DNA from: Escherichia phage vB_EcoM-CHD16UKE1
Sequence record: MZ234030.1
Length of the DNA stretch: 64,000 nt
Strand: one strand, 5' to 3'
The position numbers were made by a program, and so were the translations under genes. Below the pieces are notes generated by a model, which ran no database searches, was not told the origin of the DNA, and worked only from the letters and a program-made list of their open reading frames with translations. Below are positions 970 through 31,789 of the stretch, piece after piece (the first letter of the stretch is position 1; each line of letters opens with the position of its first letter).

Positions 970-1059
970 ATTCATAAGAGGACTTCTATGACAAAAAGGC
1001 AGTTCAGAAATAGATTATATGGACTGCCATTAAAAAGATGACTAGAATTAAACTGGTGA

Positions 1060-1374
1060 ATGGAGGTAATGATGTTATACTCAAAGGCTCGTGAAATTTA
1101 CGAAACTAAAATTAAAGAAGCAGTATTTAAGTTCGCAACGACAATGCGATGGACAAATGACTGGGAGTATTCAAAAAATCATAAGAAGCCCATGGTGACA
1201 AGAAAGGCTCATATGTTAGTGTTAATAGACCGTGAGCAGATTAAAGCCCGAGAAGCCCTCCAGAATCATAAAAAGGCTGCCTTTGAATGGTTTATGGATA
1301 ACACTGCTCCTGAGACTAAGAAAGCGGTAAGCGCATGGTTCAGTGGAAAAAATTGTGAAAGAAGTTTCTTTTAG
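1060..1374 (+). CDS. hypothetical protein (104 aa)
   Basis: ORF track; ATG start, same strand as neighbours. Confidence 0.35.
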   Translation: MEVMMLYSKAREIYETKIKEAVFKFATTMRWTNDWEYSKNHKKPMVTRKAHMLVLIDREQIKAREALQNHKKAAFEWFMDNTAPETKKAVSAWFSGKNCERSFF

Positions 1375-1376
1375 TG

Positions 1377-1406
1377 GTTTACAAGACTGTTCCTCTGTGG
1401 TACTAT
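1377..1406 (+). promoter_or_regulatory. T4-type early promoter (GTTTAC -35, 18-nt spacer, TACTAT -10) with conserved leader ending in GGAGG
   Basis: gtttacaagactgttcctctgtggtactat followed by caactatcaactacggagg and ATG at 1435. Confidence 0.55.
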
Positions 1407-1434
1407 ACAACTATCAACTACGGAGGAACACAAA

Positions 1435-1962
1435 ATGAACGCTAAAGATATTTTCAACCTGGTAAATTACAACGATGGTAAATTTAAATCTGAAGCACAA
1501 AGCAAGTTCTTTAATGACATCTCAATCGGAGGTGAAATCACGGTTGACGGAGGACAAATTTACAAATCTCGTTGGAATTGGATCGTTATTATCGATGAGA
1601 TTGGTATTGTAGAAATTTACAAGAATACGAATAAAAATCGTACATTACACTGGTCTCGTGATACTAACGAACAGTACAAAAAGGATAAAGCATCTAAATT
1701 ATCTCGTGTAACTCAAGAAGATATTGAGTTCATCAAGAAAGATATTTTGATGTATGATAACTTAATTGCTGAAGAGCAAGCAGTTATTGATAAATTTGAC
1801 GAGATTAAAGCTTCTCGTGAAATTCCTGATTTTATGAAAGAATCAGTAAATGAACGATACACTCTCATTTCAGAGCGTATTGAAACTTACAAAAAGCAAA
1901 GAGCTGAACGCCAAAATACTCTTCGGAAGTTTGAAGAACGGTTAAAGACGGTACTCGCATAA
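1435..1962 (+). CDS. hypothetical protein with C-terminal coiled coil (175 aa)
   Basis: ORF track; promoter and SD upstream; heptad-like charged C-terminus. Confidence 0.45.
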   Translation: MNAKDIFNLVNYNDGKFKSEAQSKFFNDISIGGEITVDGGQIYKSRWNWIVIIDEIGIVEIYKNTNKNRTLHWSRDTNEQYKKDKASKLSRVTQEDIEFIKKDILMYDNLIAEEQAVIDKFDEIKASREIPDFMKESVNERYTLISERIETYKKQRAERQNTLRKFEERLKTVLA

Positions 1963-2017
1963 CCGCTTTATACCAAGGATGGTATAATGGTTCTAAGCCC
2001 TTTTAATTGAGATTATT

Positions 2018-2425
2018 ATGAAACAGTTGATAATTAAAAGATTGAATTTATTGATATGTTGTTTATGTGTAGTAGTTGCATATGGTTATTATGCAATTAA
2101 TGATTATATGCATTATAAAGATTATGATGTTACTGTAGTTAATACCCTTACAGGAACTCAAGGAAAGGGGTCTAGTTTATCGTTTATTGCCGTATATGAA
2201 CTCAAAGACGGTTATAGATTTAGTGAATATATTTCACCAGAGATGTATTCATCAATAGAAAAAGGCGATAATATTACTGTAAGTTTACGTCCTTTCGACG
2301 TAAAACAGACATTGTTTGATAATATTGTTTGGTTCTTTGGAATGGTATTAGTTCAATCTGTGTGTGGTGCTTATATAGTCTGTTCCATCTTATTCTGTAT
2401 ATTTAGTAAAATTGAAATTGAGTGA
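2018..2425 (+). CDS. predicted membrane protein (135 aa)
   Basis: ORF track; hydrophobic N- and C-terminal segments. Confidence 0.4.
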   Translation: MKQLIIKRLNLLICCLCVVVAYGYYAINDYMHYKDYDVTVVNTLTGTQGKGSSLSFIAVYELKDGYRFSEYISPEMYSSIEKGDNITVSLRPFDVKQTLFDNIVWFFGMVLVQSVCGAYIVCSILFCIFSKIEIE

Positions 2426-2432
2426 GGAAAAT

Positions 2433-3320
2433 ATGTCAGTAGTAATTAATAATGTCAATGCAGTAATTAAATCTTTAGTTAATAAAAAATTAAATGAATG
2501 GACTGTACTTCGTCGTGGAGAGCCAGATAAATTTTTTCATAGATTTAACCCAACTTTGGATTTGAATGTTATTGACAGAGATGTTCATGCTGAAATTTTA
2601 GATAAATTTAAAGTTGATATTGGGTTTGGGTTAGATAAACATTTGCAACGAACAAACGGATCTGGAATGGGTTTATCTAATCGCATCATGAAAGCCCTTA
2701 ATAAAATTGGAGCGTTGTCTCGTATTAATGCGAGTGAAATCCTTCGCAATTATAATAAAGGATATGACCTTTATGGTCGACTAATGCCGAAATTATCATT
2801 TGACCAAATGATTGCGGATTTGTGGGAAAATCAACGACGATTATTAGCATTAGGCGCTCGATTAGCTAAAGGTCTAGATAAACAAATGATTTTTAAGACC
2901 AATAATACAGAAGACCTTAAATGCTTTAAATTTAGTACTCGTGGAGATGATTATTACATCAGAGCTCGCTCTACAGATTATGTTAATATGGGGCATCATC
3001 TCTGTTTAGCTTTTGAAGTTTTAAAAGAAGCCGGAACATTAGAATATGTGTCTGGTGCTAAATGTCCGATTGGTTCAAATTGCATTTTAATTTATCGCCC
3101 AGATGAATCCAGTTCAACTAAATTACCTACAAAACCTGTACCAGTTCGCAGTAATGAAAAACATTCTGAACAAATTGCTTATTTTAATAAGCAGATTGAA
3201 GAGCTAAATATTTCTATTCAGCAATATGATGATGAAATTTTCAGACTATCTGGATTGAGTAGTAAAGCTAAATCTGAGCGTGAAAAATTAATTAAAATCG
3301 TTGATTTACTTAAATCTTAA
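2433..3320 (+). CDS. coiled-coil paralogue family member 1 (295 aa from ATG 2433)
   Basis: ORF track 2412..3320; ATG at 2433 preceded by GAGG; shared W..F..LF.KQ motif and C-terminal coiled coil with next three ORFs. Confidence 0.5.
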   Translation: MSVVINNVNAVIKSLVNKKLNEWTVLRRGEPDKFFHRFNPTLDLNVIDRDVHAEILDKFKVDIGFGLDKHLQRTNGSGMGLSNRIMKALNKIGALSRINASEILRNYNKGYDLYGRLMPKLSFDQMIADLWENQRRLLALGARLAKGLDKQMIFKTNNTEDLKCFKFSTRGDDYYIRARSTDYVNMGHHLCLAFEVLKEAGTLEYVSGAKCPIGSNCILIYRPDESSSTKLPTKPVPVRSNEKHSEQIAYFNKQIEELNISIQQYDDEIFRLSGLSSKAKSEREKLIKIVDLLKS

Positions 3321-4408: not shown

Positions 4409-5410
4409 ATGACTCGTAACGAATATATCAAATCATTCAATAGCGTTATTGATGATAAAGTTAAACCTGTGTTTAGTCAGAATAGTGTTATTTCCATTAT
4501 CAATCAATGGCTTAATAATATTGATGCAAGTATTGTTTCTTCAAGCAAATTTATTCATGAAGTTCATAAAATTTCTAGTCGCGAATATAAAGATGATATT
4601 AAGGAAACTTTTAAAGGTTCTCGTCTTCTTTCATATTTAGTTAATCAAGATATTCTTGGTAAATTTGGGAAAGAAATTAAACGAACTAAAGATGTAGTAG
4701 GATACAGTTGGTTCGGTGATGTTAATTCTTATCATCTTAATAATAAAGAAGACCCTGAGAATATTTTTACTCGTCGTTGGATTAGTAATTTTAGACTTTT
4801 CAAGAAGCAAATTCTAAAATCAACTTCTAAATTATGCTATGGTGATTATCGTCAAATCCATCCTTGGGCTTCTGATATGATTATCATAAAAGAATATGAG
4901 CTTGATAAAAATAAAGCAGCTATTTTTGTGAATTATGAATTTTTTACACCAGAAGCTAATCAAAAGAACATTAATAAATTTTTCTCAATTGCTAGCGATA
5001 TAACTCGTCAGTTAGAGACCGCATTACTTTGTATGGAAACAGTAGAAAATATTCATACTTATCCTTTTAAGAATATATGCGGTTGGGAAGGATATAAAAT
5101 TGTAGTTAGTCTCCGTGAAGTAAAGTGTGCGTACTCACCGACTGATAAAGAAATTTACCAACAAAAATGTGATGAAATTGTGAATACTCCTAAAGAAGAA
5201 ACTACCCTTGAGGAACTAATGGAATGTCTTGACGATTCGCCTGAACCAGTAGAAATTCGTCCAGAAGTTATTGCACTAGAAAAAGCTTATAAAGAAGTTC
5301 TAGAAATTTCTAATAAAGCGCAGAAAGAATATGAGCAGGCTAAAAAGATTTGGGAAGAATCCGTTAATCGTCTTGATCGTCTTGAACAAGCTTTACAGTT
5401 AATTAAGTAA
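4409..5410 (+). CDS. coiled-coil paralogue family member 3 (333 aa from ATG 4409)
   Basis: ORF track 4358..5410; ATG 4409 with GAGGAG SD; motif RRWISNFRLFKKQILKSTSKLCYG. Confidence 0.5.
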   Translation: MTRNEYIKSFNSVIDDKVKPVFSQNSVISIINQWLNNIDASIVSSSKFIHEVHKISSREYKDDIKETFKGSRLLSYLVNQDILGKFGKEIKRTKDVVGYSWFGDVNSYHLNNKEDPENIFTRRWISNFRLFKKQILKSTSKLCYGDYRQIHPWASDMIIIKEYELDKNKAAIFVNYEFFTPEANQKNINKFFSIASDITRQLETALLCMETVENIHTYPFKNICGWEGYKIVVSLREVKCAYSPTDKEIYQQKCDEIVNTPKEETTLEELMECLDDSPEPVEIRPEVIALEKAYKEVLEISNKAQKEYEQAKKIWEESVNRLDRLEQALQLIK

Positions 5411-15632: not shown

Positions 15633-16835
15633 ATGAAAGTATGTATTTTTATGGCTCGAGGTCTTGAAGGTTGTGGTGTAACAAAATTCTCACTCGAGCA
15701 ACGTGATTGGTTTATTAAAAATGGTCATGAAGTAACTTTGGTTTATGCTAAAGATAAATCATTTACTCGTAATTGCGCGCATGATTATAAATCATTTTCA
15801 ATTCCGGTTTTATTGGCAAAAGAATATGATAAAACACTTAAGCTGGTAAATGATTGTGATATTCTAATTATCAATTCAGTTCCTGCTACTTCGGTTGAAG
15901 AAGACACTATTAATAACTATAAAAAAATTATTGATAACATTAAACCTTCTGTTCGTGTTGTAGTTTATCAACATGACCATTCTTCTCTTTCTTTGCGTCG
16001 AAATTTGGGATTAGAAGAAACTGTTCGTCGAGCTGATGTTATTTTTAGTCATTCTGATAATGGTGATTTTAATAAAGTTCTGATGAAAGAATGGTATCCA
16101 GAAACTGTTTCTCTGTTTGATGATATTGAAGAAGCACCGACAGTATATAACTTTCAGCCTCCTATGGATATTGCGAAGGTTCGGTCAACCTACTGGAAAG
16201 ATGTTTCTGAAATTAACATGAATATCAACCGTTGGATTGGTCGTACGACTACATGGAAAGGTTTTTATCAGATGTTTGATTTTCATGAAAAACATCTTAA
16301 ACCTGCAGGACTAAGTACTATTATGGAAGGTCTGGAACGTTCTCCAGCGTTCATTCCTATTAAAGAAAAAGGAATTCCATACGAGTATTATCGTCTTCAT
16401 CAAGTAGACCAAATTAAAATTGCTCCTAATTTGCCAACGCAAATTCTTGACCGTTATGTAAATAGCGAAATGCTTGAACGCATGAGTAAATCCGGATTTG
16501 GTTATCAGCTGAGTAAGTTGGACAAAAAATATCTACAACGTTCTTTAGAATATACTCATCTCGAGCTTGGTGCATGTGGAACAATTCCGGTATTTTGGAA
16601 ATCTACTGGCGAAAATTTAAAATTCCGTGTTGATAATACTCCTTTGACCTCGCATGATAGCGGTATCATTTGGTTTGATGAAAATGATATGGAATCAACG
16701 TTTGAACGTATTAAAGAACTGTCATCTGACCGAGCTCTTTATGACCGTGAGCGAGAAAAAGCATATGAATTTTTGTATCAGCATCAAGATTCAAGCTTCT
16801 GCTTTAAAGAACAGTTTGACATTATTACAAAATAA
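15633..16835 (+). CDS. a-gt: DNA alpha-glucosyltransferase (400 aa)
   Basis: ORF track; length and position (between 55 and 47) as in T4. Confidence 0.75.
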   Translation: MKVCIFMARGLEGCGVTKFSLEQRDWFIKNGHEVTLVYAKDKSFTRNCAHDYKSFSIPVLLAKEYDKTLKLVNDCDILIINSVPATSVEEDTINNYKKIIDNIKPSVRVVVYQHDHSSLSLRRNLGLEETVRRADVIFSHSDNGDFNKVLMKEWYPETVSLFDDIEEAPTVYNFQPPMDIAKVRSTYWKDVSEINMNINRWIGRTTTWKGFYQMFDFHEKHLKPAGLSTIMEGLERSPAFIPIKEKGIPYEYYRLHQVDQIKIAPNLPTQILDRYVNSEMLERMSKSGFGYQLSKLDKKYLQRSLEYTHLELGACGTIPVFWKSTGENLKFRVDNTPLTSHDSGIIWFDENDMESTFERIKELSSDRALYDREREKAYEFLYQHQDSSFCFKEQFDIITK

Positions 16836-26669: not shown

Positions 26670-26906
26670 ATGAAAATTGTTATGGGATGCTTAGCAGTTT
26701 GTTTAGTTGCATTAGCAGCAGTTCCATTTGTTAGTGTTGAAAATGATACTCAACCTGTGATTGAATCTAGCACCGTTATTCACACTAATGGTAAAATATC
26801 AGTTAAAATTGATGATAATCTTCATGTGAATACAAATGGATCTTTAGGTGTGCAAATGGGTAATACCTGCATAAGCACTACTGGAGTAATTACTACTTGC
26901 ATTTGA
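26670..26906 (+). CDS. small secreted protein with signal peptide (78 aa)
   Basis: ORF track 26658..26906; ATG 26670 with GGAG SD; hydrophobic N-terminus. Confidence 0.45.
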   Translation: MKIVMGCLAVCLVALAAVPFVSVENDTQPVIESSTVIHTNGKISVKIDDNLHVNTNGSLGVQMGNTCISTTGVITTCI

Positions 26907-26916
26907 GGAAATTATT

Positions 26917-27297
26917 ATGAAAATCGCTATTTTGGTTATTGCATTAGGTCTTACTGGTTGTGTAGCTCAAGGACCGGTAGTAAATCAGTCTGATGTAGGA
27001 AAAATTGTAAACTGTTCAAGCAAATTTTATAATCCTAATGTCAAGTGTTATAAAGAAGCTCCAAAGCAAACAGTCGAACAAATGCAGGCGAATTTTGACG
27101 AAGCTATTCGTCCAGATGAATCTGCTCAAGCATATCGTAATTCTGATGTAATTACACACGAAGAAAAAATTGAAAACTACTGCGCCGAAATTTGGGCTAA
27201 TTGGGCTAATAATTACCAATGGCGTACTGATAAAAATGCTCCGATGGAGTATGTAGTGAATTCTTATAATTCATGCGTAAAAAATTTGACTAAGTGA
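26917..27297 (+). CDS. lipoprotein (lipobox LTGC), 126 aa
   Basis: ORF track; MKIAILVIALGLTGC signal. Confidence 0.5.
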   Translation: MKIAILVIALGLTGCVAQGPVVNQSDVGKIVNCSSKFYNPNVKCYKEAPKQTVEQMQANFDEAIRPDESAQAYRNSDVITHEEKIENYCAEIWANWANNYQWRTDKNAPMEYVVNSYNSCVKNLTK

Positions 27298-27304
27298 GGA
27301 AAAC

Positions 27305-27556
27305 ATGGAAACTTTAGTAGCAGGTTCAATTTTTATGGTTTTAGTTTCAGGCGTGTTGGCTATTATTATATACATGCTTCCATGGTTTATTGCTTTGATG
27401 CGTGGGTCAAAATCGACAGTAGGAATCTTTTTCACATCTTTACTGTTTAACTGGTCAATTATTGGTTGGTTTATTACATTTATTTGGTCAATTGCGGGTG
27501 AAACTAAAAAGTCTGCACAACCAAATCAGGTAATTATCATCAGAGAGAAGGAATGA
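27305..27556 (+). CDS. imm: superinfection immunity protein Imm (83 aa)
   Basis: ORF track; membrane protein; length and position next to 42/43. Confidence 0.75.
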   Translation: METLVAGSIFMVLVSGVLAIIIYMLPWFIALMRGSKSTVGIFFTSLLFNWSIIGWFITFIWSIAGETKKSAQPNQVIIIREKE

Positions 27557-27702
27557 AAAGCAAAATTATAGCAGTGTTGCTTTTAATCTTGATGATTATA
27601 ATAAGTATATACTATAGTGTAACGGTTCCTCTTATGATTCCAACTATTATTTTAGGTTGGAGTTTATTACTGTTACAAGTTAAATATGAATGTATCAATT
27701 GA
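27553..27702 (+). CDS. small membrane protein (49 aa; imm.1-like position)
   Basis: ATG 27553 overlapping imm stop to TGA 27700-27702. Confidence 0.35.
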   Translation: MKSKIIAVLLLILMIIISIYYSVTVPLMIPTIILGWSLLLLQVKYECIN

Positions 27703-27709
27703 GGTTTAA

Positions 27710-28450
27710 ATGATTAGTGACTCTATGACAGTTGAAGAAATCCGTCTTCATTTGGGGCTTGCATTAAAAGAAAAAGATTTCGTAGTTGATAAAACTGGTG
27801 TTAAAACTATTGAAATTATTGGCGCATCATTTGTAGCAGATGAACCGTTTATTTTTGGCGCTCTTAATGATGAATACATTCAGCGTGAACTTGAATGGTA
27901 TAAATCTAAGAGTTTGTTTGTTAAAGATATTCCAGGTGAAACACCAAAGATTTGGCAGCAGGTAGCATCTTCTAAAGGCGAAATTAACTCGAATTATGGT
28001 TGGGCTATTTGGTCAGAAGATAACTATGCCCAGTATGATATGTGTTTAGCTGAACTTGGTCAAAATCCTGATTCTCGACGTGGTATCATGATTTATACTC
28101 GTCCATCTATGCAGTTTGACTACAATAAAGATGGTATGTCAGATTTCATGTGTACTAATACAGTACAGTACTTGATTCGTGATAAGAAAGTCAATGCGGT
28201 AGTAAGCATGCGCTCAAATGACGTGGTCTTCGGATTCCGTAATGATTATGCATGGCAAAAATACGTATTAGATAAATTAGTATCTGATTTGAATGCAGGC
28301 GATTCAACTCGTCAGTATAAAGCAGGTTCTATTATATGGAATGTTGGAAGTCTTCATGTATATTCTCGTCATTTTTATTTGGTTGATCATTGGTGGAATA
28401 CTGGCGAAACTCATATTGTGAAAAAAGACTATAAAGGTGAGTGGAAATGA
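27710..28450 (+). CDS. 42: dCMP hydroxymethylase gp42 (246 aa)
   Basis: ORF track; thymidylate-synthase-like fold motifs; length matches T4 gp42. Confidence 0.85.
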   Translation: MISDSMTVEEIRLHLGLALKEKDFVVDKTGVKTIEIIGASFVADEPFIFGALNDEYIQRELEWYKSKSLFVKDIPGETPKIWQQVASSKGEINSNYGWAIWSEDNYAQYDMCLAELGQNPDSRRGIMIYTRPSMQFDYNKDGMSDFMCTNTVQYLIRDKKVNAVVSMRSNDVVFGFRNDYAWQKYVLDKLVSDLNAGDSTRQYKAGSIIWNVGSLHVYSRHFYLVDHWWNTGETHIVKKDYKGEWK

Positions 28451-29298
28451 TTCAATTCGTAATTCCAAGTTATCAACGTGTCGGGGCAGTTTCTGCCCTT
28501 GATATGTTTCCGACTGATTATGAACCGCATATTATAGTGCGTGAACACGAAGAAAAAGCTTATTATGATGCCTATGGGTCTAGAGCTAAAATTGTAACTA
28601 TTCCTGATGATGTTAATGGAATTGCCGGTACTCGTAAAGCAATTACTGATATGTATGCAGGTCAACGAATCTGGATGATTGACGATGATACTACTATCCG
28701 TATGAGTTCAATACGAAAGAGAGACGATAAACGGCGCGTAGATAAAATTAATCAATTAACTCGTGAACAGTTCTATGAATTGATTCAATATGTTGAAGAT
28801 GCCATGGATTGCGGGTATTATCACGGTCATGCTCGTCTACCAATTTTTAAAATTACTTCATCTTGGGGTAATTATCGTGAAAATTCATATGGATTCACGA
28901 ATACATGGTATGATCTCGGAAAACTTACGACAGAACAAATTGGGTATGGAAAAATTGATTTATGCGAAGATATGTATGCATTTCTCAATTTAATTAATCA
29001 AGGTTATCCGCATTTGGCCTTGTTCAAATATCTAGTTGTATCTGGAAAAGCACAAGCTCCTGGCGGGTGTAGTTCAATTCGTAGTAATTCTAAACATAAT
29101 AGAGCGCTTGAGCAAATCAATAGAGAGTTTCCAGAGCAAGCTCGTTGGAAAACTTCTAATATTGAAAAACGAAAATCGTTGGGTGAAGAAGACGAGCCAT
29201 TAAAGGTTCTTCGCATGTGCGTTTCGCGTAAAGAAAAATCAGAAGCATTTCATAAGTTTAATGCTATTCACAAAGTTGAAGTTACGGAAATATCATGA
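28447..29298 (+). CDS. GT-A fold glycosyltransferase (283 aa from ATG 28447)
   Basis: ORF track 28441..29298; N-terminal FVIPSYQR and DxD-like WMIDDDTT; ATGA overlap with gene 42 stop. Confidence 0.55.
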   Translation: MIQFVIPSYQRVGAVSALDMFPTDYEPHIIVREHEEKAYYDAYGSRAKIVTIPDDVNGIAGTRKAITDMYAGQRIWMIDDDTTIRMSSIRKRDDKRRVDKINQLTREQFYELIQYVEDAMDCGYYHGHARLPIFKITSSWGNYRENSYGFTNTWYDLGKLTTEQIGYGKIDLCEDMYAFLNLINQGYPHLALFKYLVVSGKAQAPGGCSSIRSNSKHNRALEQINREFPEQARWKTSNIEKRKSLGEEDEPLKVLRMCVSRKEKSEAFHKFNAIHKVEVTEIS

Positions 29299-30371
29299 AA
29301 ATAGCTATTCTAAATTTAAGTAATACTGTGAGTGATTTTAAAATAGTATCATCAGCCGAAACTATTTTAATAGGCAGGTCTTTAACTGAATTAGGGCATT
29401 CCGTTGATATAATTTCAATGCGAAATACTGAATACACTATATCATTTGATGTAGTAACTGATATAAATTCATACGATAGACTAATAGTAATTAATGGCGC
29501 TATCAATTTCTTCGGTGGAAAGAAAAATCCAATCGTTTTAAATTCATATAAATTGATGGCTGAATATAGAAGTAAAATTTATTATATTTTTACTGATGGC
29601 CGTCTTGGATTTATGCAAGTTCTTCCGGTAGTTCGCAGAAAGAAATTTTCAAGTGAATACAAAGATGAAGACTTATTTGTGTCATCTGACTTTAAAGTAA
29701 TATCTCAGGGCAGAAATCTAGAAATTGCTAAAAAGGCTCATAAGAAAACAACCGAAAGATACGGTAAAGAATTTGAGTATGATTACTTTCCTGTAGATAG
29801 ATATTTTATTCATTCACAGAAACTTAAACCTGCGAATCAAACTATTAAAAAATATGACGTTGTGTACTGCGGCGCGTTTAGAGGTGGGCAACGAGAGTCT
29901 AAAATAGTTGAATTTCTTTTTGATACCAATTTAAATATTAAAATGTTTGGAACTATTAAAGAGAAACAGTTTAAAAATCCTAAATTTCCGTGGAATGTAG
30001 CTCCATCATTCAGTCAAAAAATAGCATCAAATTTGGTTATTGACACGAATAGCCAAGCGATAGCAACTATAGTCATTGGTGATAAAGATTACAATGATAA
30101 TTTTATCACAATTAGAGTCTGGGAGGCCATGGCATCAGATGCTGTGATGCTTATCGATGAAGAGTTTGATAGCGAGCATCTTATTATTGACGACCCTAGA
30201 TTCTACGTTAAGAATAAAAATGATTTTGAAACTTTAGTAAATGAGTTAAAAACCAATGAGTGCTTGAGGCGGGAATTGATTACAATACAACATCAAACCC
30301 TATTTAAGTATCAAAGTTTAAAATCAGAATGGCAAGAAGAGCTTCTTCGCGTTCTCGATATCACCGCTTAA
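29295..30371 (+). CDS. b-gt: beta-glucosyltransferase-family protein (358 aa; diverged from recalled T4 beta-gt)
   Basis: ORF track; blocks INFFGGK, FRGGQRESK, NFITIRVWEAMASDAVMLIDEEFD resemble T4 beta-gt. Confidence 0.65.
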   Translation: MKIAILNLSNTVSDFKIVSSAETILIGRSLTELGHSVDIISMRNTEYTISFDVVTDINSYDRLIVINGAINFFGGKKNPIVLNSYKLMAEYRSKIYYIFTDGRLGFMQVLPVVRRKKFSSEYKDEDLFVSSDFKVISQGRNLEIAKKAHKKTTERYGKEFEYDYFPVDRYFIHSQKLKPANQTIKKYDVVYCGAFRGGQRESKIVEFLFDTNLNIKMFGTIKEKQFKNPKFPWNVAPSFSQKIASNLVIDTNSQAIATIVIGDKDYNDNFITIRVWEAMASDAVMLIDEEFDSEHLIIDDPRFYVKNKNDFETLVNELKTNECLRRELITIQHQTLFKYQSLKSEWQEELLRVLDITA

Positions 30372-30383
30372 TTTGAGGTTAAT

Positions 30384-30497
30384 ATGTTAGGACCTTTATT
30401 ATTCATTACTGGCTTAGGAATATTTACCGCAGTTAGTCTTGCTGGATTGTATCTGTATGACCTTTATGAAAGTAAGAAATCAAAAAGTAAATGCTAA
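30384..30497 (+). CDS. small membrane protein (37 aa)
   Basis: ATG 30384 to TAA 30495-30497. Confidence 0.3.
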   Translation: MLGPLLFITGLGIFTAVSLAGLYLYDLYESKKSKSKC

Positions 30498-30613
30498 ATG
30501 ATAAGGTGATATAATTATCTCATTATTAAATATGATGTAGTTAAACTCTGGGTATAACAATACCCTTTATTATAAACATGAGTAAAATATAATGCTGCCT
30601 ATGGAAAAATATA

Positions 30614-31789
30614 ATGTCTGATTTAAAATCCCGTTTGATTAAAGCTTCCACTTCTAAAATGACTGCAGAGCTTACTAAAAGCAAGTTCTTTAATGAAAAG
30701 GATGTGGTTCGTACTAAAATTCCAATGCTGAATATTGCAATTAGCGGTGCGTTGGACGGTGGTATGCAGTCTGGTTTAACTATTTTCGCAGGGCCTTCTA
30801 AACATTTTAAATCTAATATGTCACTGACAATGGTAGCAGCTTATTTGAATAAGTATCCTGATGCTATCTGTTTGTTCTATGACTCAGAGTTTGGTATCAC
30901 TCCGGCTTATCTTAAGTCTATGGGAGTTGACCCAGAACGAGTAATTCATACGCCAATCCAGTCAGTTGAACAGCTGAAAATTGATATGGTGAATCAGCTT
31001 GAAACTATTGAGCGTGGTGAAAAAGTTATTGTATTCATCGATTCAATTGGTAATATGGCTTCTAAGAAAGAAACTGAAGATGCCTTGAATGAAAAATCTG
31101 TGGCAGATATGACTCGTGCTAAATCACTGAAGTCATTATTCCGTATTGTTACTCCTTATTTTAGCATTAAAAATATTCCATGTGTTGCAGTTAACCATAC
31201 AATTGAAACCATTGAAATGTTTAGTAAAACCGTGATGACAGGTGGTACAGGCGTAATGTATTCGGCTGATACCGTATTCATTATCGGTAAGCGTCAGATT
31301 AAAGATGGTTCTGATCTTCAGGGGTATCAATTTGTTCTAAATGTAGAAAAATCTCGTACCGTTAAAGAAAAAAGTAAATTCTTTATTGATGTTAAATTTG
31401 ACGGTGGTATCGATCCTTATTCTGGATTGTTAGATATGGCTCTAGAATTAGGATTTGTGGTAAAACCTAAAAATGGTTGGTATGCTCGTGAATTTCTTGA
31501 TGAAGAAACCGGCGAGATGATTCGCGAAGAAAAATCTTGGCGTGCAAAAGATACTAACTGCACTACATTCTGGGGTCCTTTATTTAAGCATCAACCATTC
31601 CGAGATGCTATTAAACGTGCTTATCAGTTAGGTGCTATTGATAGTAATGAAATTGTTGAAGCTGAAGTTGATGAATTGATTAACTCAAAGGTTGAAAAAT
31701 TTAAATCTCCAGAAAGTAAAAGTAAATCAGCTGCTGATTTAGAAACTGACCTCGAACAGTTAAGTGATATGGAAGAATTTAATGAATAA
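30614..31789 (+). CDS. uvsX: recombinase UvsX (RecA-like), 391 aa
   Basis: ORF track; Walker A GPSKHFKS; length matches T4 UvsX. Confidence 0.9.
   Translation: MSDLKSRLIKASTSKMTAELTKSKFFNEKDVVRTKIPMLNIAISGALDGGMQSGLTIFAGPSKHFKSNMSLTMVAAYLNKYPDAICLFYDSEFGITPAYLKSMGVDPERVIHTPIQSVEQLKIDMVNQLETIERGEKVIVFIDSIGNMASKKETEDALNEKSVADMTRAKSLKSLFRIVTPYFSIKNIPCVAVNHTIETIEMFSKTVMTGGTGVMYSADTVFIIGKRQIKDGSDLQGYQFVLNVEKSRTVKEKSKFFIDVKFDGGIDPYSGLLDMALELGFVVKPKNGWYAREFLDEETGEMIREEKSWRAKDTNCTTFWGPLFKHQPFRDAIKRAYQLGAIDSNEIVEAEVDELINSKVEKFKSPESKSKSAADLETDLEQLSDMEEFNE

Follow-up and report, generated by a model that had tools for sequence, protein, structure and literature searches.

We analyzed a stretch of 64,000 nucleotides (nt) from Escherichia phage vB_EcoM-CHD16UKE1 (MZ234030.1), hereafter the window, with regard to the glycosyltransferase (GT) genes at and near positions 27710..30371. 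Position by position, the window equals the first 64 kb of Escherichia phage vB_EcoM-G3F6 (MZ234034.1), which is classified in the species Tequatrovirus ecombl75. Three consecutive plus-strand genes make up the locus: gene 42 for dCMP hydroxymethylase (27710..28450, 246 amino acids, aa), the gene here called TAGT (28447..29298, 283 aa from its ATG), which corresponds to the T2/T6 beta-glucosyl-HMC-alpha-glucosyltransferase (ba-gt), and b-gt' (29295..30371, 358 aa), a divergent member of the T4 beta-glucosyltransferase family (GT-B). A third GT gene, a-gt for DNA alpha-glucosyltransferase, lies 11 kb upstream on the same strand (15633..16835). We consider it probable that the locus is the hydroxymethylcytosine (hmC) glycosylation module of a T2/T6-type Tequatrovirus (the vB_EcoM-G3F6 group) plus a divergent T4-family beta-GT, with the pathway and imported origin proposed below.

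The TGA of gene 42 is overlapped by the TAGT ATG at 28447 as ATGA (AAATGATT), and the TGA of TAGT by the b-gt' ATG at 29295 in the same manner (TCATGAAA). An earlier note on this DNA had described these three open reading frames (ORFs), both ATGA junctions, and the motifs FVIPSYQR (aa 4-11) and WMIDDDTT (aa 76-83) of the 283-aa protein, all of which are present in the sequence; it had also counted three candidate DNA sugar transferases in the window, correctly, the intact a-gt joining TAGT and b-gt'. Its view of the three overlapping genes as one coupled unit stands insofar as the 4-nt overlaps are real. The coupling is nevertheless unremarkable, because 4-nt overlaps occur in 6 of the 36 adjacent pairs of genes across the 21 kb of annotation surrounding the locus, and T2, T6, and e11/2 have an identical 42/TAGT overlap.

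The gene 42 product matches PF00303 (E 1e-15) and PHROG 160 (E 5e-67), and its 96.7% aa identity, equal length, and equal position identify it as an ortholog of T4 gp42; it is 100% identical to gp42 of e11/2. The a-gt product belongs to the T4 alpha-glucosyltransferase family (PF11440, E 1.8e-237), with a full-length match of residues 1-400 to the nearly identical T4 AGT (1xv5, E 6e-258).

The TAGT protein scores 39.2 bits against PF20691 (curated cut-off 27.5) over model positions 2-205 of 205 and matches PHROG 842 (‘beta-glucosyl-HMC-alpha-glucosyltransferase’) with an E of 2.3e-88. It shares 95.7% aa identity with the T2 protein, 95.3% with that of T6, and 98.6% with that of e11/2, and this near-identity, together with synteny after gene 42, marks it as an ortholog of the T2/T6 enzyme. 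R11, R63, D79, D80, and D81 are invariant in the TAGT family (49 sequences) and all present in the window protein. An AlphaFold2 model built from the 49-sequence alignment (pLDDT 92.2, pTM 0.90) retrieved the GT2/GT-A enzymes TarP, WrtF, AvpGT, K4CP, TarS, and SpsA from the PDB with Foldseek (probability 1.00, E ~2e-6, TM ~0.5). The model, the Foldseek matches, and the invariant DDD bear out the GT-A nature that the earlier note had read from the motifs, and the protein would accordingly adopt a GT-A fold with an acidic DxD motif. The model depended on the alignment, single-sequence AlphaFold giving a pLDDT of 35, and searches of the PDB by sequence and small profile returned nothing or chance matches only.

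On these comparisons the 283-aa protein is the described T2/T6 enzyme and not a novel one. That enzyme, TAGT (PF20691), is syntenic with T4 b-gt and makes gentiobiosyl-hmC (PMC13390438, PMC13216743), and its deletion from T6 abolishes gentiobiosyl-hmC (PMC11078745). Because the window protein is ~95% identical to the T6 enzyme, we predict that it adds beta-1,6 glucose to alpha-glucosyl-hmC, the gentiobiosyl-forming role that the earlier note had offered as one option. The T2 and T6 proteins themselves differ at only 5 residues (T2 1049..1891, T6 1050..1889 in the extracted stretches). T2 has His at position 11, where Arg is found in all 49 family sequences including those of T6 and the window, and Ser at the nearly invariant P251; gentiobiosyl-hmC reaches ~5% in T2 and ~72% in T6, and the changes at positions 11 and 251 may explain low T2 versus high T6 gentiobiosylation.

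The 2.66-kb region 27710..30371 is confined to 11 of 50,697 phage records, with b-gt' at ≥99% identity in 10 of them and vB_EcoM_G2540 as the eleventh; nucleotide identity over the region is ~100% for vB-Eco-KMB26 and 98.5% for G2540. The T2/T6 junction, 42–TAGT–uvsX, occurs in 454 phage records at ≥96.6% identity, T2 and T6 among them. Because of these frequencies, b-gt' and not the GT-A ORF is the odd gene relative to the nearest relatives of the window, the phage backbone being of the T2/T6 Tequatrovirus type.

Gene order at this site varies among T4-like phages. T4 has 42–b-gt–segA–uvsX with a 23-nt gap between 42 and b-gt, the direct adjacency given for T4 in the earlier note; T2, T6, and e11/2 have 42–TAGT–uvsX, and the window has 42–TAGT–b-gt'–37-aa ORF–uvsX. 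The order in S16 and CC31 is 42–TAGT–b-gt–uvsX with a 4-nt TAGT/b-gt overlap; two metagenomic T4-like lineages carry 42–TAGT–b-gt with a short spacer, and other metagenomic lineages carry 42–b-gt–uvsX. Phage vB_EcoM_JB75 (MH355584.1), presumed namesake of Tequatrovirus ecombl75, has the plain T2/T6 arrangement (its match ends at query position 1561), and if it is the namesake, presence or absence of b-gt' would be a within-species polymorphism. Yersinia phage MHG19 has a 214-aa ORF between gene 42 and b-gt (1811..2455 of the extracted stretch) with NUMOD3 and weak GIY-YIG (SegE-like) matches, evidently a homing-endonuclease-like gene in the slot held by TAGT elsewhere.

The b-gt' protein scores 207 bits against the N-terminal domain model PF09198 (cut-off 27) and matches PHROG 7922 (E 7.5e-138). 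Its residues 1-355 align with residues 1-350 of T4 BGT (1bgt, E 7.5e-124), a full-length family match at 55-56% identity, in agreement with the only moderate similarity to T4 remarked on in the earlier note. All 27 residues invariant across 28 family members are retained, including T4 E22, D100, R191, R195, Y261, R269, and E272 (D100 corresponds to D101, and R191/R195 to R196/R200, in b-gt'). E22, D100, R191, R195, R269, and E272 have catalytic or UDP-binding roles in the T4 BGT structure. Differences from the T4 enzyme comprise two small insertions, of 1 and 4 aa, and the changes I101G, P104G, G187C, S189A, S192G, and M240S. We predict that b-gt' puts beta-glucose on hmC.

Identity to T4 is 56% for b-gt' as against 96.7% for gp42, 90.3% for uvsX, and 100% for gp40. 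A search of 5.8 billion proteins found no relatives of b-gt' between 96% and 55% identity, the next after a 96% variant (L007, Logan SRR32122129) being T4-type proteins at 55%. In a neighbor-joining tree, b-gt' and the 96% variant group together on a long branch, the sister (82% bootstrap) of a clade with T4 b-gt, with S16 and CC31 outside. By these measures b-gt' is an isolated, divergent allele.

The window and e11/2 are 99.88% identical over 26800..29270 and unalignable from there to ~30560. In uvsX the first ~500 nt are 87.8% identical to e11/2 and the last ~576 nt 99.1%, mismatches per 250 nt numbering 24-35 at 30500-31000, 9 at 31000-31250, and 4 at 31250-31500. The 5' part of uvsX (30614..31150, plus strand, the right edge approximate and placed by mismatch density) would thus form the divergent right arm of a foreign tract, and the identity breakpoints at 29270 and ~31100 suggest import by homologous recombination. 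Toward G2540 the window differs by ~2.5% up to 28914 and is then identical to ~32000 except for a frameshift and one base, and dS against L007 is 0.028 in b-gt' and 0.09-0.12 in the flanks. The e11/2 breakpoints, the G2540 block, and the low b-gt' dS point toward a recombination tract that has moved recently. In GC content the b-gt' tract (0.27-0.36) does not stand out as foreign against its flanks (~0.36).

At the left edge, the 3' end of TAGT (29271..29298, plus strand) encodes KVEVTEIS* in place of the native PIAVD* and carries the ribosome-binding region and start codon of b-gt'. Orthologs of the T2/T6 tail are present in S16, CC31, and a metagenomic locus (L020), and the window tail is not homologous to it; because those tails align with that of T2/T6, we regard the T2/T6 tail as native and the window tail as probably foreign. 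TAGT of L020, 77% identical to that of the window, ends in ...AIHPITVE*, and the small ORF comes right after it, without b-gt. Its tail aligns with the T6 tail through the stop codon (74% over 108 nt, E 2e-19) and with the S16 and CC31 tails through the Pro codon.

Most likely, then, the tract 29271..~31150, with the new TAGT tail, b-gt', the small ORF, and the 5' half of uvsX, would have been imported by homologous recombination into a Tequatrovirus that carried alpha-GT and TAGT, the TAGT 3' end and uvsX serving as recombination arms. The donor would be an unsampled T-even relative with a TAGT–b-gt module like those of S16 and CC31, and the tract would since have moved between Tequatrovirus backgrounds. 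We also considered the reverse, that T2/T6 are in-frame deletion derivatives of a three-GT ancestor and the window is ancestral, prompted by a 24/25 match of the T2/T6 TAGT tail to T4 sequence after b-gt. This was ruled out by L020, in which a native-type TAGT tail, aligned with those of T6, S16, and CC31, adjoins the small ORF without b-gt.

The match itself lies just upstream of segA in T4 (4694..4718 of the extracted stretch), where the 3' end of a broken small ORF agrees with the T2/T6 TAGT tail at 24 of 25 positions, stop codon included (TTCATCGAATAGCAGTTGATTAATG); in PTE-Eco15 the agreement is limited to the first 13 nt, and the match may be a recombination joint tied to the neighboring homing endonuclease segA. 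Between the b-gt stop and the small-ORF ATG, T4 (4577..4606 of the extracted stretch) and PTE-Eco15 have the non-coding sequence AAAGTTATTTATCTTTAACCGGTGGAATAA, which can be aligned to the final 30 nt of TAGT in L020 (23/30, within a 65-nt high-scoring segment pair, 85%, E 2e-16). This stretch resembles the fossil of a TAGT 3' end located after b-gt, and if it is one, b-gt would have taken the place of the TAGT body in the lineage of T4. At least three alleles of the first 500 nt of uvsX occur among Tequatroviruses (e11/2 vs PTE-Eco15 98%, window 87-88% to both, T4 76-78% to all), and the 3' half is 97-99% identical in e11/2, PTE-Eco15, the window, and T4. By this evidence the GT slot is, together with the neighboring part of uvsX, a recombination hot spot.

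Downstream of b-gt' lies a 37-aa ORF (30384..30497, plus strand; MLGPLLFITGLG...), for which a Pfam search gave no match. Its 5' part is homologous to the ORF behind TAGT in L020 and to one that T4-type phages have behind b-gt, which PTE-Eco15 carries intact and T4 in broken form. L007 has lost the start codon of the ORF, ATG having become ATA, and also lacks 3 nt close by (window-equivalent 30384..30398); the ORF is probably dispensable. A terminator-like hairpin, detected by consensus scan only, lies between this ORF and uvsX (30550..30565, plus strand; a 6-bp stem followed by TTTATTATAA). Another terminator-like GC-rich hairpin, GGGGCAG-TTT-CTGCCCT followed by a T-rich run, is located at 28483..28499, 36 nt into the TAGT coding sequence, in a stretch that is 99.88% identical between the window and the T2/T6-type e11/2. 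A sigma-70 promoter scan showed no excess over shuffled sequence (24 vs 21.2 ± 4.3) and says nothing on operon structure.

From the biochemical roles of the homologues (PMC11078745, PMC13216743, PMC13390438, bioRxiv 10.64898/2026.02.25.707755) we propose the following pathway. The gene 42 product would make hm-dCMP, leading to hmC in DNA, and alpha-GT would put alpha-glucose on the part of the hmC within its reach, roughly 70-75%. TAGT, as an inverting GT-A enzyme, would then, as in T6, turn alpha-glucosyl-hmC into gentiobiosyl-hmC by attaching a beta-1,6 glucose; a T6-like high conversion is expected because the window protein keeps R11 and P251, which are changed in T2. Finally, b-gt' would put beta-glucose on the hmC left bare by alpha-GT, as T4 beta-GT does. 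The predicted DNA would contain gentiobiosyl-hmC, a little alpha-glucosyl-hmC, beta-glucosyl-hmC, and little or no naked hmC. We suggest, tentatively and with somewhat less than even confidence, that this phage group is a natural hybrid of an alpha-GT+TAGT phage and a beta-GT+TAGT phage, with a glycosylation pattern never measured in any phage: gentiobiosyl-, alpha-glucosyl-, and beta-glucosyl-hmC, the latter possibly extended by TAGT, and no bare hmC.

Several points weigh against the proposed pathway and imported origin. Between the window and L007, b-gt' has 6 synonymous and 16 nonsynonymous differences, a ratio of nonsynonymous to synonymous rates (dN/dS) of 0.67, as compared with 0.06 for gp42, 0.15 for TAGT, and 0.02 for uvsX; b-gt' departs from the pooled flanks (Fisher p = 5e-5), and its ratio is not distinguishable from neutral (binomial p = 0.6). 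In G2540, b-gt' is split into ORFs of 249 and 80 aa by an extra A in an A6 run (window-equivalent 30015), its sole difference from the window copy, and T4 S189 and M240 are replaced by A and S in b-gt'. Because of the elevated dN/dS, the G2540 split, and these two changes, b-gt' may be under relaxed constraint or have a shifted specificity, and the first two make its activity uncertain. Furthermore, no donor lineage was found among the 5.8 billion proteins searched, the direction of transfer (import here vs replacement elsewhere) is one that we infer, and a literature search on the 11 phages found no experimental work on their DNA modification.

The neutral-like dN/dS, set against that of gp42, TAGT, and uvsX, and the frameshifted G2540 copy could also mean, as the main alternative, that b-gt' is a redundant passenger heading for loss, which came with the recombination tract, adds little or nothing, and drifts neutrally. 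T4 with either single GT deleted kept wild-type virulence (PMC13216743), and a T4-type b-gt is likewise split in Escherichia phage 236Ecol005PP. We nonetheless hold this explanation to be unlikely, though it deserves consideration: the b-gt' ORF is intact in 10 of the 11 phage records and in the 96% variant, it keeps every one of the family-invariant residues, and 7 of the 16 substitutions fall ≤2 residues from invariant sites (permutation p = 0.034), a better fit to tuning of the active-site surface than to random decay. The G2540 frameshift, moreover, lies in a homopolymer. L007 has the opposite defect, TAGT being split by an extra A in a homopolymer (window-equivalent 28848) with b-gt' intact, and both frameshifts could be sequencing errors. 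The 236Ecol005PP gene (1501..2555 of the extracted stretch) is annotated as two overlapping ORFs with a frameshift and misnamed ‘beta-glucosyl-HMC-alpha-glucosyltransferase’; it is possibly another decaying GT in an alpha+beta phage.

A different acceptor or donor for b-gt', TAGT, or both is improbable. TAGT might extend beta-glucosyl-hmC as well, as is presumably the case in S16/CC31-type phages, or b-gt' might act on glucosylated bases or with another sugar, giving a glycan unseen in T2, T4, and T6. TAGT homologues do pair with beta-GT in phages without alpha-GT, so that some must accept a non-alpha substrate (PMC13216743; PMC8056088), and b-gt', on its long isolated branch, has I101G and P104G beside the catalytic Asp and G187C, S189A, and S192G in the loop that binds UDP. 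However, the b-gt' differences fall at positions that are variable in other family members as well, and the TAGT body of the window is 99.9% nt identical to the alpha-associated T2/T6 type and only 65% identical in aa to the beta-associated S16/CC31 type. The remaining alternative, that the 283-aa protein is an additional, undescribed transferase inserted between gene 42 and b-gt, is refuted by its 95-96% identity to the T2/T6 enzymes and its position in the 454 T2/T6-type records; the gene is extra relative to T4 alone, and the earlier note, which had proposed it as extra and had named identity with this enzyme as grounds for dropping the idea, was misled because it compared with T4 a backbone of T2/T6 type, in which the inserted gene would be the b-gt homologue.

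Glycosylation of T-even DNA is the model system for how phages with hypermodified DNA and the modification-dependent defenses McrBC, GmrSD, Brig1, and Brig3/BapA compete in an arms race. T4 (alpha+beta) and T2/T6 (alpha+gentiobiose, ~25% bare hmC) each have a known weak point, and a three-enzyme phage is a natural test of combining the two strategies. In T2 and T6 ~25% of the hmC stays bare, and both phages are sensitive to Brig3, an hmC glycosylase; T4 beta-GT can modify adjacent hmC, completing glucosylation (bioRxiv 10.64898/2026.02.25.707755). Gentiobiose blocks Brig1 in vitro and also blocks BapA (PMC11078745; bioRxiv 10.64898/2026.02.25.707755), and alpha-gt-null escapers of Brig1 can withstand type IV restriction if they carry a second GT of opposite anomer (PMC13216743). 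In principle these protections would come together in a three-GT phage. If our proposal is correct, the hybrid genome would close the ~25% naked-hmC weakness of T2/T6 against Brig3 and McrBC, keep gentiobiose protection against Brig1 and BapA, and could lose alpha-gt without becoming unglucosylated. Isolates G3F6, KMB26, and UPWr_E2 exist, making the prediction directly testable.

As a sequence finding the locus is ordinary, in that every component gene falls within a described family and the literature already mentions the three-GT gene content twice, both times in passing and without experiments. It was noted for G2540 (PMC8056088, 2021), and only 1 of 753 GT-bearing phages was reported to have all three GT types (PMC13216743, 2026), this being vB-Eco-KMB26 in the supplementary table (beta-GT homologue 358 aa, alpha-GT 400 aa, TAGT 283 aa). 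What is new here is modest: an isolated, divergent b-gt' allele that appears to show relaxed or diversifying evolution, and a putative recombination tract with defined breakpoints. The locus also illustrates how a GT repertoire can be reshuffled by homologous recombination with TAGT and uvsX as arms.

Among known systems, the T2/T6 ba-gt gene (g-gt, TAGT; T6 YP_010067197.1) is matched by the window gene in aa sequence, in its slot right after gene 42 with the ATGA overlap, in PF20691 membership, and in a GT-A fold with the invariant DDD, but the window protein has its own C-terminal tail and its stop overlaps the b-gt' start, whereas the T2/T6 gene precedes uvsX. Like T4 beta-GT (1BGT, 1JG7; PF09198), b-gt' is collinear over its full length with all family-invariant residues kept; it is preceded by TAGT where T4 b-gt is preceded by gene 42, and its dN/dS is elevated. 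Gelderlandvirus S16 and Karamvirus CC31 share with the window the 42–TAGT–b-gt order, the 4-nt TAGT/b-gt overlap, and uvsX downstream, but identity to the window proteins is 65% for TAGT and 44-45% for b-gt, and phages of this type lack alpha-GT (PMC13216743, PMC8056088). The three-GT phages G2540 and KMB26 have the same locus, KMB26 without difference and the G2540 record with b-gt' split by its 1-nt insertion. The T4 pair of alpha-GT and beta-GT follows the same rationale, full hmC coverage with the freedom to lose alpha-gt against Brig1 (PMC13216743). T4, however, has another b-gt allele and is without TAGT, to which the window phage would add the gentiobiose-forming step.

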